This document shows, in pieces, positions 3,434 through 60,844 of a stretch of DNA of 64,000 nucleotides. Both the position numbers and the translations under genes were made by a program. The DNA comes from an uncultured Methanosarcinales archaeon (lineage in GTDB: Archaea; Nanobdellota; Nanobdellia; Woesearchaeales; DSVV01), in NCBI GenBank assembly GCA_964556185.1, contig CAZKVI010000003.1:2089-66088 (forward strand), given 5' to 3'. Position 1 is the first letter of the stretch. Each line of letters opens with the position of its first letter. The notes beneath the pieces are model-generated. The model ran no database searches. It worked only from the letters and a program-made list of their open reading frames with translations, and was not told where the DNA came from.

Positions 3434-3547
3434 TAGCAGCATTGAGCTCAAAATTCACTCAAAGAACACATCGCGACCGTTGCGAGGGGTTGCTCCCTCC
3501 GGGAACGCAGGTCCTTTGAAACATCATCCAGAATTTTGAAGCTGCTA
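3434..3547 (-). ncRNA. ffs: SRP RNA (7S/4.5S-like), apparently only helix 5 plus helix 8
   Basis: The minus strand reads 'GGACCUGCGUUCCCGGAGGGAGCAACCCCUCGCAACGGUC'. This contains the near-universal helix-8 motif CCCGGA(A)GGGAGCAAC. It is closed by long terminal pairing TAGCAGC/GCUGCUA and UCAAAAUUC/GAAUUUUGA. A TATA 'GTATATAAAC' lies about 21 nt upstream. The element is a GC island in AT-rich DNA. Confidence 0.55.
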
Positions 3548-28828: not shown

Positions 28829-29232
28829 TCTTCATAAGCAAATTTTCTTTTTTCAAATGTACAAGATCCTTTGTCTTCAATAACATTTCCATCTAGAGAA
28901 TTCCTAAATCTAGCAATTAATGCATTACAATCACTACATCTTCGAAAACAAGTTCCAATTTCCACTTCAAAACCTTTTTCATTTAATTGTTTTAACTTAG
29001 TTGGCACTTCTGCTCTTTCTCTGAAGACATTATAAACATTATGAACAAAAGAAGAATCAATTATTGCATCAGAGAGTCTAATTTGAAGTTTACATTTCTT
29101 AGGTGCTTTAGTTTCAACAACATCTTTCCTTATAAGGATACATCTAGAATTCTTTAGTCTATTCTCTCTATCTTGCTTTTGCTTTGCAAACTTATCAGGA
29201 AGTTTAATACTTCCATCAGGATTGAATTCCAT
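28816..29232 (-). CDS. hypothetical protein
   Basis: Start moved to MEFNPDGS (ATG 29232), because the listed N-terminal 32 codons are the antisense or same-strand read-through of a tRNA gene. The ATG lies 5 nt after the tRNA 3' end. Confidence 0.45.
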   Translation of the reverse strand: MEFNPDGSIKLPDKFAKQKQDRENRLKNSRCILIRKDVVETKAPKKCKLQIRLSDAIIDSSFVHNVYNVFRERAEVPTKLKQLNEKGFEVEIGTCFRRCSDCNALIARFRNSLDGNVIEDKGSCTFEKRKFAYEDYFD

Positions 29233-29236
29233 TTTA

Positions 29237-29356
29237 CGGGCCCACGGGGATTCGAACCCCGGGCCTATGGCTGTCTGTGCGTAAGCAAAGACCCAGTGGA
29301 TCTTTGATCCTAACGCGTAAGAGGCCACCGCTCTAACCAGGCTGAGCTATGAGCCC
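29237..29356 (-). tRNA. tRNA-Lys(CUU) with a 45-nt canonical (37/38) intron
   Basis: Acceptor GGGCTCA/TGGGCCC. D arm GCTC-AGCCTGGTTA-GAGC. Anticodon stem GTGGC/GCCAT with loop CTCTTA|A. T arm CGGGG-TTCGAAT-CCCCG. G73. Confidence 0.75.
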
Positions 29357-29361
29357 ATAAA

Positions 29362-29442
29362 GGGCTTGACTGACCAAAGGGAAGGAAACCCTTCTTGCGT
29401 GTCGACCGAGCGTAACCAGTCGCCACGGGTGAGATTGAGCCC
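29362..29442 (-). ncRNA. 81-nt GC-rich structured element transcribed ahead of tRNA-Lys (leader or independent small RNA)
   Basis: TATA 'tttataaa' lies about 27 nt upstream on the minus strand. End pairing is GGGCU/AGCCC, with inner helices GACUG/CAGUC and AAGGG-UUUCCUU-CCCUU. It starts with GGGCTCA, as the tRNA does. Confidence 0.35.
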
Positions 29443-29485
29443 ATATTATTCTCAGAATTAAATATTAATTTATAAAAGTTCTTGA

Positions 29486-44556: not shown

Positions 44557-44904
44557 CTATGAGTTAATTGTTGGAGAAGTTTTACTAATCTCTTCAATAG
44601 ATTTTAAAGCTTCTTCAATTGCTTTAATCTTTTCTTCAGAGATCTCTTCTTTTTCCACAATCCTTTGTTTCATATTATCATATTCTTGTATGGCTTTCTC
44701 AATCTCTCTTTCTTTATTCCTTTTTTCTCTTTTTATGTCTTCTTCAATATCTTTGTTCCAGTTTTCTAAATCAATCTTTAATTCTTCTATTTGTTGTTCT
44801 TTGTGTTTTAATTTTTCCTTAAATGTTGACTTGGTAGTCATGATGTCAAGTTTTCTTCCTGTAAGTCTTTCCACAATACTATATCTTGATTGACTTTCTG
44901 TCAT
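44557..44904 (-). CDS. coiled-coil protein, unknown
   Basis: 115 aa. SD GAGGTGA lies upstream. The gene begins 30 nt after the 3' end of the unusual tRNA. Confidence 0.4.
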   Translation of the reverse strand: MTESQSRYSIVERLTGRKLDIMTTKSTFKEKLKHKEQQIEELKIDLENWNKDIEEDIKREKRNKEREIEKAIQEYDNMKQRIVEKEEISEEKIKAIEEALKSIEEISKTSPTINS

Positions 44905-44934: not shown

Positions 44935-45070
44935 CGCCAGGGACGGGAGTTTCAGTAACTTCAAAGAGTTACACCCCATCAGTTGACATTTGAACCCACG
45001 TGACATTCAGGGGACGAATGTCAACTGGATCATCAGTCCAGCGTCTTGAGCCAGACTCGACCACCCTGGC
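44935..45070 (-). tRNA. unusual class-II (long variable arm) tRNA with anticodon loop CUGAUGA (formal anticodon GAU) and a 40-nt insertion in the T arm
   Basis: Acceptor GCCAGGG/CCCTGGC with G73. Ser/Leu-type D arm 'TGGTCGAGTCTGGCTCAAGAC'. Anticodon arm CTGGA-CTGATGA-TCCAG. Variable hairpin TGACATTC-GTCCCCT-GAATGTCA (8 bp). T arm GTGGG-TTCAAAT-[40 nt]-CCCGT. Confidence 0.55.
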
Positions 45071-45119
45071 CTCGCCAACAGTAAAGTTTATATACTTGTT
45101 TGAATATACAATTAATTAA

Positions 45120-58773: not shown

Positions 58774-58938
58774 GTGGGGGTAGCCCGTAAGAAGATTCTT
58801 TGGGTTCCCTAGAGCAAAGTCTGGTCAAATGCGCAGGACTTAAGATACACTGAAGACAGCCTTCACGGCAAAGTCTTTGTTTTGAATTAGACATCCTGTC
58901 ACTTAGTGTGTTCGGGGGTTCGAATCCCCTCCCCCACA
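58774..58938 (+). tRNA. tRNA-Leu(UAA) with two introns (about 31 nt in the D arm and 48 nt at 37/38)
   Basis: Acceptor GTGGGGG/CCCCCAC with A73. D arm TAG[intron]CAAAGTCTGGTCAAATGC. Anticodon stem CAGGA/TCCTG with loop CTTAAG|A. Variable arm TCACTTAGTGTGT. T arm GGGGG-TTCGAAT-CCCCT. Confidence 0.8.
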
Positions 58939-59035
58939 TTTTATTCTTTATTTTCTATTTTATGTGCGTACTGCTTTGCAAAGCAAATGCAGTACTCGCT
59001 GACTTTTTCCCAAGTTTTTACGAACGTAAAAAGCT

Positions 59036-59058
59036 GGTGGGGATCATCCTCCCCCACA
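59036..59058 (+). pseudogene. tRNA-Leu mini-helix remnant
   Basis: 'GTGGGGATCATCCTCCCCCACA' retains the acceptor 5' strand, a T-loop remnant and the acceptor 3' strand. 'cctcccccacatttt' repeats 58928-58942 exactly. Confidence 0.45.
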
Positions 59059-59083: not shown

Positions 59084-60844
59084 TTAAGGTTCAGTTGGTT
59101 CATCTAGTGATGCACTTGTTTCTAAGCCACTTCTTCTTAAACCTTTAAGAGTATAAGTTGGATCTTCAAGATAACTCTCACACTGTGCTTTAATTCCAAG
59201 AGCAGCCATAAGCATTTTATCTTTATCATCGTAAATTTCTCTAATAGAATCTCTATCTTTCATTGTTCTTGGATTAAATACTTCTGATAAAATTCCATCA
59301 AAAGAAAATTCATCTGCTGATTCAGATTGTTCTGTTACTTCACCAAATCCTCCTTTTGCTTTATAAGTTTCATAAAGCCTATGGATTTTATAAACTTTAT
59401 AATGGCTTAAGGAAGAAGAATCACTTGTATGGTAAGAACACAAATGATCAATTATTTGGTTTGTTTCTTCTAAAGTTTTTCTTACTAATACAAAGTTTTG
59501 AACATCTGGAATTTCACGACCTTCTTCGGCTTTCCATCTTCTGTAAGCATTTACAAGAATAACATTTTTGTATAATCTGTATAATCTTTCAAATCCTGCA
59601 TAATATTTTGTTCCTTTTCTAACATTTATTATTGGGTGTTTTTCAGCTAATGCATTTGCTCTTTCCTTTAATTGAGTTCTTATATCTCTTGTCCCATGTA
59701 AATCTTGTCCACTATATGCTGCAATAATTTCATCATAAGTTATTTCTTCAATTGACTCACCATCATCAGTTAATCTTTTTCTTTTCTTACTTCCATGTTC
59801 TCGTCTGCGAATTTCATCAGTATTTGCATGACAATCTGCAAACTTAACCATTATAGCTCTTTCTATATCTTCTTCTTTTATTGCTCTCTCTTTTCCTCCC
59901 CAACAAATTATTCCATCCCAGTCACTAGGTCTAAATATTTTGTTTACAGAATCATAATAATTTTGTTTAGTCCCCTTTGTCAAAAGATAACTAGTAACAG
60001 CAACTCCTCCAATCATTTCAACCATTGTACTATCAATAGCACCACCAAGGTCTTTCATGTAATTTTCTAAACAATTATAAATCCCATGATCGACAAAAAT
60101 ATCAGCTACTCTTTCCCCTTTTGTCATTAATTTACCTCTAACTTCAGATTTCTCTGAGAAACCATGTTTTCTTATTTCATCCCTCTTTTCTTGGATAAAT
60201 TTCTTCTTCTCAATAATTTCTTCTTCAACTCCCTCTAGTTCTTCCATTCTTTCTGCAACCTTTGCTTTATAACCATCTCTTCTTTTCCCTTCTAATTGTT
60301 TAATACTTCTTGTTAAGAAACCATGTCTTTCTATCAATCCACCAAGTTCTTCATGTTCAGCCATATTATAAATTCTAACAGTGTCTCTGATATAATGATC
60401 AATAAATTCTTCAGCAGTATCATGATATAATGCTGCAATAATTGTTGTAAGATCAGTAACACCAGCTTTGATGAGTGTTCTTGTAACTCTTAGTGGATGT
60501 TGTACAAAAGGTGCTCCTGTTAATTTTCTATCTGGTGCAATTCTATATTTCTCAAAACTATCATACAATGCAACTTTTAAGAATGTTTGTTCATCATCTT
60601 CTAAAGCAGAATAAGCTTCTTCTTGACCTCTATAAAGCATTCCAACAACGCTTTCGAGTTTTTCTTCTTTGTCTTTAAAATCAACTTTAAAGCTATCATC
60701 AGAATCTTTGTTTGTAAAGAAAGCAACCATTCCATGATCTATTCGACTTAAATAAAGCTCATTTCTTCCAATAAGCCTTTCAAGATTTACATGGCCACTA
60801 TGTGGACTTGGACTAACACCCATCTTCTCTTCAAATAATCTCAA
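59084..60844 (-). CDS. HD-domain protein with a RelA/SpoT-type (p)ppGpp-hydrolase-like motif and a long unknown C-terminal region
   Basis: 'FVQHPLRVTRTLIKAGVTDLTTIIAALYHDTAEEF' matches HPLxV...G.D..tI.AALLHDxxED. Confidence 0.6.
   Translation of the reverse strand: MRLFEEKMGVSPSPHSGHVNLERLIGRNELYLSRIDHGMVAFFTNKDSDDSFKVDFKDKEEKLESVVGMLYRGQEEAYSALEDDEQTFLKVALYDSFEKYRIAPDRKLTGAPFVQHPLRVTRTLIKAGVTDLTTIIAALYHDTAEEFIDHYIRDTVRIYNMAEHEELGGLIERHGFLTRSIKQLEGKRRDGYKAKVAERMEELEGVEEEIIEKKKFIQEKRDEIRKHGFSEKSEVRGKLMTKGERVADIFVDHGIYNCLENYMKDLGGAIDSTMVEMIGGVAVTSYLLTKGTKQNYYDSVNKIFRPSDWDGIICWGGKERAIKEEDIERAIMVKFADCHANTDEIRRREHGSKKRKRLTDDGESIEEITYDEIIAAYSGQDLHGTRDIRTQLKERANALAEKHPIINVRKGTKYYAGFERLYRLYKNVILVNAYRRWKAEEGREIPDVQNFVLVRKTLEETNQIIDHLCSYHTSDSSSLSHYKVYKIHRLYETYKAKGGFGEVTEQSESADEFSFDGILSEVFNPRTMKDRDSIREIYDDKDKMLMAALGIKAQCESYLEDPTYTLKGLRRSGLETSASLDEPTEP

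Follow-up and report, generated by a model that had tools for sequence, protein, structure and literature searches.

We examined a tRNA-Lys locus on the minus strand of a 64,000-nt stretch of DNA (the window), in which an 81-nt GC-rich element, here called E81, lies between an archaeal promoter and an intron-containing tRNA-Lys gene. Coordinates refer to the minus strand of the window unless stated otherwise, and L-numbers denote related lineages and their loci. The window has a G+C content of 31.5%. Because archaeal EF-1alpha and ribosomal protein S10 are encoded near the E81 locus, and because homologues of the local open reading frames (ORFs) are annotated as Nanoarchaeota, Woesearchaeota or 'archaeon', we assign the host, on these sequences, to the DPANN archaea, as an AT-rich, Woesearchaeota-like member. 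An exact look-up of the S10 protein recovered the same population only and no sister strains.

Layout of the locus and composition of the element

The unit begins with a promoter at 29483-29469 that consists of a sequence resembling the archaeal TFB-recognition element (BRE), AAGAACT, and a TATA box, and that is recognized both from its sequence and from near-identical promoters in relatives. The TATA box, TTTATAAA, occupies 29476-29469, with the purine-rich, BRE-like AAGAAC on its 5′ side. Exactly 26 nt separate it from E81 (29442-29362), which begins with GGGCTCA. An A/U linker, TTTAT (29361-29357), connects the element to position +1 of the tRNA and would be the site of 5′ processing; A/T-rich junctions of this kind are also found in two other lineages, L009 and L065 (ATAGAA and ATAAAT). 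The tRNA-Lys(CUU) gene that follows (29356-29237) is composed of exon 1 (29356-29318), a 45-nt intron between positions 37 and 38 (29317-29273) and exon 2 (29272-29237). It matches Rfam family RF00005 with a score of 55 bits. ARAGORN missed the genomic gene and called tRNA-Lys(ctt) once the intron had been removed in silico; the exon junction is defined by an intronless orthologue in L006. After the discriminator base a spacer of 4 nt, TAAA, leads to the ATG of ORF138, which encodes a protein of 138 amino acids (29232-28816). On the other side, a bacterial-type sigma-70 gene (30367-29486), identified from its ORF and from Pfam domains in orthologous loci, ends 10 nt upstream of the TATA box and serves as context outside the transcription unit.

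A first-pass annotation of this DNA, made from the letters alone, had described a TATA box at about 29476-29469, a GC-rich, multi-helix element of 81 nt, an intron-containing tRNA-Lys five nucleotides beyond it, and a position for the whole directly downstream of the sigma-70 gene. All of these features are present where it placed them. It also put the ATG five nucleotides past the 3′ end of the tRNA, where we count the four of TAAA.

With 59% G+C against 31% for the genome, E81 is one of only nine 60-nt GC islands in the 64 kb. The others are three tRNAs; 45010-45086, which corresponds to a multi-intron tRNA at 45070-44935; three coding segments rich in Ala/Pro or Gly; and an intergenic island at 3452-3533. 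The predicted fold of E81 is a closed multi-helix structure of -29.5 kcal/mol, a modest value relative to shuffled sequences (z = -2.2; 5 of 200 as good). The 5′ part of the element (29442-29405), delimited by local alignment, comprises a pseudo-exon, that is, a decayed version of about nt 1-20 of tRNA-Lys beginning with GGGCTCA, and a hairpin arm that resembles the start of a D-loop intron. The 3′ part (29404-29362), described from the fold, holds the return arm of this first hairpin, a second hairpin (GAAGGG-UUUCCUU-CCCUUU) and an AGCCC that pairs with the initial GGGCU. The 3′ half has no significant similarity to the mature tRNA, to a second kind of leader described below (type 2) or to any related locus compared.

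We searched Rfam 15 at the gathering threshold over the window and at E<=10 over a 501-nt sub-window, and under neither setting did a match overlap 29362-29442. Thus, the Rfam scan that the first-pass annotation had proposed for the 81-nt element came back empty even at E<=10. The type-2 leaders and a related cassette at tRNA-Leu were likewise without a match. Several specific identities for E81 were considered and rejected. As a tRNA or tRNA-like gene it gave no match to RF00005 and nothing in ARAGORN with relaxed thresholds, and its candidate for a T-like loop is UUUCCUU, where a tRNA would have a loop of the type UUCRANY. As a degenerate whole tRNA, with the 3′ half representing the T-arm and acceptor, its similarity was not significant (p = 0.64). 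As a C/D box or H/ACA guide it fails because a reading by eye of 29442-29357 found no C (RUGAUGA), D (CUGA) or ACA boxes and no Rfam guide family matched. Searches of the window, of 79 loci (related or fetched) and of viral, phage and plasmid collections found no second copy of E81. Scans of these collections for E81, for the duplicated GGGCTCA pattern and for the type-2 cassette returned nothing or chance matches to unrelated high-GC phage contigs, and BLAST against phage and plasmid records found none.

Related lineages and the origin of the element

For comparison, DNA was fetched around the closest homologues of ORF138 and around orthologues of the sigma-70 gene. The order sigma-70, tRNA-Lys, ORF138 is kept in six lineages, and their tRNA-Lys genes differ strikingly. 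The window, which is equivalent to L066-68, carries E81 and the 37/38 intron. L061/62/64 carry E81 with its linker in identical form (86/86 nt), together with a T-loop intron and a tRNA 3′ half that is a different allele. L006-8 have no leader, the same promoter running directly into a tRNA without introns, and L070 has the same arrangement with introns in the D-loop and T-loop. A different, type-2 leader is found in L009, where a nearly perfect copy of tRNA nt 1-20 is followed by 77 nt with two hairpins, and a similar one, with the copy decayed, in L065; both of these genes contain D-loop, 37/38 and T-loop introns.

Among the four close lineages with a common promoter and synteny, E81 is therefore 100% identical in two, sampled from at least six metagenomes, and absent from two (L006 and L070); in the two more distant lineages (L009 and L065) a similar copy of the tRNA 5′ end is followed by a two-hairpin leader of a different kind. 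The first-pass annotation had looked to other genomes for conservation of its helices. The comparison gave a divided answer: the element is identical in the L061 lineage, but it is missing from two close lineages and replaced by a different leader in two others. Flanking genes are 88-95% identical to those of the window in L061 and 77-88% identical in L006 and L070. A near-identical promoter precedes the leader in L061, L009 and L065, and the distance from the TATA box to the first GGGCTCA is 26 nt in the window, L006, L061, L009 and L065, and 28 nt in L070. Between L009 and L065 a leader hairpin is preserved by two compensatory double changes (GUACUG/CAGUAC versus GUACGA/UCGUAC).

The 3′ halves and introns of the tRNA-Lys genes are mosaic among the lineages. 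The 45-nt intron at 29273-29317 recurs in L009 (2886-2930) with two differences, which amount to one compensatory change of an A:U to a G:C pair, and the window and L009 combine this same intron with different alleles of the tRNA-Lys 3′ half. L061, L006 and L070 lack it, and in L065 its site is taken by an unrelated intron of 16 nt. Such a distribution suggests exchange of introns or recombination. In L006 (2146-2883; also in L007 and L008) a gene for a 245-residue LAGLIDADG homing endonuclease lies on the opposite strand directly after the intronless tRNA-Lys, the called 3′ end of the gene overlapping ~30 nt at the 3′ end of that tRNA; in L061 a radical-SAM gene takes this position. The tRNA-Lys locus is an insertion hot spot.

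The alignments point to the tRNA-Lys gene itself as the source of the 5′ half of E81. Nucleotides 1-38 match the L070 gene, across exon 1 and ~18 nt of the D-loop intron, at 31 of 39 positions of a local alignment whose score of 40 compares with 15.5 +/- 2.5 for shuffled sequences (0 of 2000 shuffles as good). The similarity remains significant when the first 7 nt are removed (p about 0.001), and the same 38 nt also align with exon 1 and the start of the D-loop intron of L009. Moreover, E81 and the pseudo-exon of L065 have two derived changes in common, T8->A and an extra G in CCGTG. E81 thus most likely descends from the first exon and intron start of tRNA-Lys, copied and since decayed, with ~45 nt of hairpin-forming sequence joined to the copy. 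In view of the homology of nt 1-38 to exon 1 and the start of a D-loop intron, we interpret the GGGCTCA that opens both element and tRNA as the remnant of a direct repeat left by duplication or insertion. The first-pass annotation had drawn attention to the common heptamer; the repeat is real, but it goes back to a duplication and does not reflect a coincidence between two RNAs. In such an event, at the level of DNA, the first ~20 nt of the tRNA and the first ~18 nt of its D-loop intron would have been placed between the promoter and the real tRNA, with the ~45 nt of hairpin-forming sequence after the copied part, and the copy would later have decayed into a pseudo-exon.

A BLAST search with the leaders against the window and all fetched loci uncovered a second case, at tRNA-Leu(UAA) on the plus strand (58774-59058, as delimited by the search and by alignment). 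The tRNA itself (58774-58938) contains multiple introns and was missed by Rfam and ARAGORN, the latter calling tRNA-Leu(taa) once it was spliced in silico. Downstream of it, a 77-nt two-hairpin cassette (58962-59038) corresponds, in reverse complement, to the type-2 tRNA-Lys leader of L009 and L065 (alignment score 67 versus 14.9 +/- 2.7 for shuffles, z = 19; 46 invariant columns), and directly behind it lies a decayed duplicate of the tRNA-Leu 3′ end (59039-59058). At tRNA-Leu as at tRNA-Lys, the cassette has its GTAC hairpin next to the intact tRNA and its TTTTA hairpin next to the pseudo-exon. Since the cassette is inverted relative to transcription of tRNA-Leu, the common factor is the geometry of the DNA and not a function of the RNA. 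The repeats of tRNA termini are in direct orientation in every case: GGGCTCA (7/7) plus ~20 decayed nt at E81, 20+4 nt in L009, and ~25 decayed nt at the tRNA-Leu 3′ end. A further decayed, AT-enriched tRNA fragment, reaching from the D-arm to the variable arm, lies at 45155-45115, ~45 nt upstream of the tRNA at 45070 and beyond its TATA box. As judged from these alignments, partial duplication of a tRNA terminus around a small insert is recurrent in the window. The 586-amino-acid gene beyond the tRNA-Leu cassette (59084-60844, minus strand) had no homologue but itself among 5.8 billion proteins.

Proposed processing of the transcript and rival explanations

On balance, E81 is probably the structured 5′ leader of the tRNA-Lys(CUU) precursor, a leader built around a pseudo-exon by remodelling of the DNA and not a gene of its own. 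The most economical arrangement is a single promoter for the whole unit, because the same promoter, at the same spacing of 26 nt, stands before the intronless tRNA-Lys of L006. Reading of the sequence revealed nothing TATA-like in the intervals from E81 to the tRNA or from the tRNA to the ATG. Other tRNA promoters in the window have a spacing of ~26 nt (tRNA-Met, 48897) or of 23-26 nt depending on the octamer chosen (tRNA-Ala, 50342). The single promoter of the first-pass annotation is accordingly plausible, on the strength of the promoter position in L006 and the lack of an internal TATA-like sequence, but it is unproven.

According to the leader interpretation, transcription would start ~26 nt past the TATA box, at the pseudo-exon, and the leader would fold on itself during synthesis, GGGCU:AGCCC enclosing the two hairpins and the false acceptor strand being kept off the 3′ strand of the tRNA. 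An RNase P-type activity would cut at TTTAT/G+1 and the leader would be discarded, a splicing endonuclease would remove the 37/38 intron, and 3′ processing after the discriminator base would free the ORF138 mRNA with a leader of 4 nt. The first strand of E81 is a perfect copy of the acceptor 5′ strand, and in RNAfold it is a near-isoenergetic competitor for the 3′ end of the tRNA; when a trailer of at least 4 nt is included, the true acceptor strand wins (P = 0.78-0.87). If there is selection on E81, it is probably for harmless self-folding and not for a function in trans. That a 5′-processing activity exists in this lineage is implied by the first tRNA copy of L065, which is too degenerate to be a real exon, and by the distance of only 9 nt between tRNA-Met and tRNA-Ser (48773/48763).

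Removal by 5′ processing is favoured because no bulge-helix-bulge (BHB) motif can splice E81 out. As the criterion for such a motif we took a helix of 4 bp between two bulges of 3 nt (or one of the relaxed forms HBh′ and hBH) at the exon-intron boundaries and an excision that restores a functional tRNA. A scan on this basis recovered the T-loop introns of relatives strongly (h=5, h′=5-8), with the caveat that the D-loop intron is a relaxed motif seen by eye, which the scan reported as a weak motif with a 1-nt offset, and that the 37/38 intron was missed at strict settings. Around E81 the scan found weak motifs at chance level only, none of them restoring a tRNA. Indeed, the central 4-bp helix is impossible at the junction of a direct repeat, because the two strands are identical and not complementary. 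E81 was rejected as a BHB-dependent intron, since a complete tRNA-Lys lies downstream of it and the element itself is 5′ of +1 and outside the mature tRNA. It was also rejected as a substitute first exon that splicing would join to the D-arm, for which the sole BHB candidate (TGGC/GTTA, h=3, h′=3) is at chance level.

Three other explanations have to be set against a discarded leader. It is very improbable that the first GGGCTCA is the true 5′ end of the mature tRNA, as in the leaderless tRNAs of Nanoarchaeum equitans, and that a giant, non-canonical intron of the acceptor stem makes up the next 86 nt. The 26-nt distance from the TATA box to this first copy, which equals the promoter-to-tRNA spacing of L006 and is near that of tRNA-Met, agrees with such an intron, as does the pairing of the first copy with the tRNA 3′ strand in RNAfold when the trailer is omitted (P = 0.95). 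No BHB or relaxed motif can be drawn inside the direct repeat, however, and the scan yielded none that restores a tRNA; the first copy of L065 has diverged within the would-be exon; and closely spaced tandem tRNAs imply a 5′-processing activity. By the known rules of splicing this explanation is close to refuted. Also unlikely, though less so, is that E81 has a function of its own as a small RNA: it would share a transcript with the tRNA and persist as a stable species of ~81-86 nt once RNase P had cut at the tRNA 5′ end, much like the tRNA-linked small RNAs and snoRNAs of other organisms, with the tRNA as the processing signal. Its G+C content (59% against 31%), its closed multi-helix fold and its 100% identity in two lineages (six or more metagenomes) whose flanking genes differ by 5-12% would suit a functional RNA, and the analogous leaders of L009 and L065 retain their hairpin through two compensatory double changes. 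The element is nevertheless dispensable, since it is lacking in L006 and L070, two lineages about as near to the window as L061, and it is confined to one locus, with no copy elsewhere in the window, the 79 loci or the viral, phage and plasmid collections; it has no Rfam family and no guide-RNA boxes, and its 5′ half is visibly derived from a tRNA gene. The occurrence of the type-2 cassette in either orientation relative to transcription further favours an entity at the level of DNA. The distinct structured RNA gene of the first-pass annotation is on these grounds not supported: no Rfam family matches, half of the element comes from a tRNA, and its distribution among relatives is patchy.

A possibility that we regard as more substantial, if still doubtful, is that E81 represents a miniature mobile cassette or an integration scar, or a descendant of one, the tRNA terminus having been duplicated as its target. 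This is a claim about origin and is compatible with a leader as the present-day function; the same process would have placed type-2 cassettes at tRNA-Lys and tRNA-Leu. Direct repeats of a tRNA terminus surround each insert, and the type-2 boundaries are identical at two tRNAs, with the GTAC hairpin by the intact gene and the TTTTA hairpin by the pseudo-exon. The patchy distribution, with perfect identity between lineages and a presence/absence polymorphism among close relatives, the mosaic of tRNA-Lys 3′ halves and introns, and the additional insertions at the locus (LAGLIDADG in L006; radical-SAM and a second sigma gene in L061) all fit an origin by mobility, and a published integrase model predicts exactly such a signature (PMC3293823). 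On the other hand, no integrase or transposase gene lies between or beside the repeats, the neighbouring ORFs lack recombinase domains, and the ~45-77 nt between the repeats form no recognisable element body. An insert of 80-100 bp would be very small as a substrate for site-specific recombination. E81 is seen at one locus only, it has no significant sequence in common with the type-2 cassette beyond the pseudo-exon, and plain tandem duplication followed by decay gives the same picture for E81. A bolder version, to which we attach a low likelihood, holds that E81 and type 2 are undescribed, non-autonomous two-hairpin elements of ~80 nt that enter DPANN tRNA termini and duplicate 20-30 nt of the tRNA end. 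Were it true, elements outside the mature tRNA would become pseudo-exon leaders or trailers, and elements inside it, with a possible BHB, would become non-canonical introns. Cassettes and introns would then be linked through the homology of the E81 hairpin to the D-loop intron, and there would be a concrete mechanism for the rise of archaeal tRNA introns and split tRNAs.

Several considerations count against the leader interpretation that we prefer. The start of transcription, the joint transcript and the sites of processing are predictions from sequence. Self-sequestration of the leader is hypothetical, as the outcome in RNAfold flips with the 5′ and 3′ ends that are chosen: without a 3′ trailer the false acceptor strand pairs with the tRNA 3′ strand (P = 0.95). 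The complete lack of substitutions in 86 nt between the window and L061 lineages would have a chance of ~0.012 at 5% divergence; such constraint is more than a disposable leader would clearly need and could reflect an independent function or a recent transfer. A copy of the tRNA 5′ end accounts for the 5′ half of E81 only, and the pattern among lineages would fit a gain of the leader in some as well as a loss in others. Finally, Nanoarchaeum equitans, a relative, lacks RNase P, and it is because of this absence that we retain a small probability for the intron.

Flanking genes, other tRNAs and known systems

ORF138 had been called an orphan. It belongs instead to a conserved DPANN protein family with invariant cysteines, having at least 122 DPANN homologues of 46-88% identity. 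Its start codon is backed by a conserved N-terminus, M-x-EFNPDGS, in 30 homologues; four cysteines (C47, C99, C102 and C124) are invariant in the homologue alignment and C31 is nearly so. The sole Pfam match is a sub-threshold one to Mut7-C (E=0.065), and comparison with PDB sequences gave no match. An AlphaFold model (pLDDT 81) resembled no PDB fold at E<=0.001, the best being eIF1/SUI1-like and Prp-like (E 0.003-0.01, TM <= 0.48). Most relatives of ORF138 have a TATA box of their own ~21-25 nt before the ATG and are natively leaderless. In the window the 30 nt on the 5′ side of the ATG are GC-rich tRNA sequence, and neither a promoter for ORF138 nor a terminator is visible. As the tRNA occupies the usual position of the ORF138 promoter, the simplest interpretation, and a plausible one, is that ORF138 is co-transcribed with the tRNA and freed by 3′ processing of the latter; an mRNA with a 4-nt leader should be translatable, since the promoter-bearing homologues are natively leaderless. 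The leaderless mRNA proposed in the first-pass annotation is in this respect reasonable, given the 4-nt leader and the leaderless homologues, but its release is an inference and the adjacency of tRNA and ORF138 is confined to a narrow clade, one with at least 71% ORF identity, in which inserted genes separate the two in L006 and L061. From the tRNA to the ATG there are 8 nt in L009, about 28 nt in L065 and 25 nt in L070. A metagenome scan with the ORF138 alignment produced 50 loci, all of <=62% ORF identity, 42 of them with upstream sequence; a tRNA precedes ORF138 in none of the 42, nor in L010, L249 or L250/251 (28-64% ORF identity).

Sigma-70 genes in Woesearchaeota have been reported before (PMC8204110). 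In a scan of a genome collection with the sigma-70 protein of the window only bacterial loci were found, and the homologues of 64-69% identity were also bacterial, with no tRNA nearby. Those nearest non-archaeal relatives (L071 and L072) are in bacterial-looking contexts (MotA/ExbB, aminopeptidase). The sequences are consistent with a fairly recent bacterial origin of the gene. L061 has two sigma-70 genes in tandem, the upstream one a divergent paralogue.

Elsewhere in the window, the multi-intron tRNA at 45070-44935 is recognized as tRNA-Ile(gat) once spliced in silico, yet it has an unusually long extra arm (96 nt). It had been offered as a parallel to the tRNA-then-gene order at E81. The arrangement is real but looser, with a spacer of 30 nt and a GGTGA motif resembling a Shine-Dalgarno sequence before the ATG at 44904. 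The intron of tRNA-Met(CAU) (48773-48897) contains the motifs GTGATGA ... CCGATGATTA ... CTGG, which are like those of a C/D box guide; a C/D box guide within a tRNA intron is known for archaeal tRNA-Trp. tRNA-Ser(GGA) follows tRNA-Met(CAU) after CC and seven T. The GC-rich intergenic island at 3452-3533 (62% G+C) starts with GGATGATG and ends with TGAGTGA, which resemble a C box and a D box, and has no Rfam match; it is a candidate for an unannotated small RNA.

The locus presents one tRNA-Lys gene in at least five architectures among lineages with a common promoter and synteny, one of which retains a decayed exon 1 and intron start within the transcription unit, and duplications of tRNA ends border a small conserved cassette at two different tRNAs. 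How archaeal tRNA genes gain extra introns, split or become permuted is an open question, and such cassettes, if mobile, would be a direct source of disruption. There are practical implications as well: several tRNA genes in the window escape ARAGORN and Rfam, and GC-rich 'orphan' islands beside tRNAs in AT-rich DPANN genomes should not be taken for new small RNA genes without a comparison of this kind.

Dicistronic precursors in which a tRNA is joined to a small RNA or an mRNA, with the neighbour freed by RNase P or RNase Z, include MALAT1-mascRNA, plant tRNA-snoRNA and archaeal tRNA-C/D small RNA transcripts. The E81 locus would resemble them in its single promoter, in the use of a tRNA as processing punctuation and in a near-leaderless downstream mRNA. 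It differs in that the upstream piece is not supported as a functional RNA, and the adjacency of tRNA and ORF138 is limited to a small clade and is no conserved operon. Miniature non-autonomous elements with terminal hairpins or att flanks, such as MITE-like elements, PATEs from IS200/IS605 and cis-mobilizable elements, are similar in size (~80 nt), and the type-2 cassette has two hairpins, compensatory changes and a recurrence at different loci. Unlike these elements, the inserts are bordered by duplications of 20-29 nt of a tRNA terminus, much longer than the target-site duplications of transposases; a cognate element that is autonomous is not known, and E81 is single-copy in the data searched.

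Closer in lineage and gene class are the disrupted tRNA genes of archaea (DPANN, Thermoproteales and others), which have multiple non-canonical introns or are split or permuted and are processed through BHB motifs (Kaneta et al. 2018, PMC5829648; Fujishima and Kanai 2014, PMC4033280). The neighbouring tRNA-Lys alleles have D-loop, 37/38 and T-loop introns and E81 is partly homologous to a D-loop intron; unlike a BHB intron, E81 is outside the mature tRNA, has no BHB at its boundaries and is leader-like. The nearest precedent is tRNA-Thr(GGU) of Caldiarchaeum subterraneum, where a mobile element left a 5′ fragment of the tRNA upstream of a reconstituted tRNA with differing intron content (Sugahara et al. 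2012, PLoS One 7:e32504; PMC3293823). At both loci a partial copy of the tRNA 5′ end forms a direct repeat upstream of the intact gene, intron content varies between copies and close genomes, and the locus is heterogeneous in a natural population. The insert between the repeats, however, is 1.8 kb and encodes a recombinase in Caldiarchaeum, whereas it is ~45-75 nt without a recombinase here, and the Caldiarchaeum fragment lies outside the tRNA transcription unit, whereas E81 lies between promoter and tRNA and is expected in the precursor. That one locus has so far been the only population-level example, and the E81 locus is a second and richer one: a case of rapid remodelling of tRNA genes in this group of tiny archaea and a variation on the known disruption of archaeal tRNA genes.

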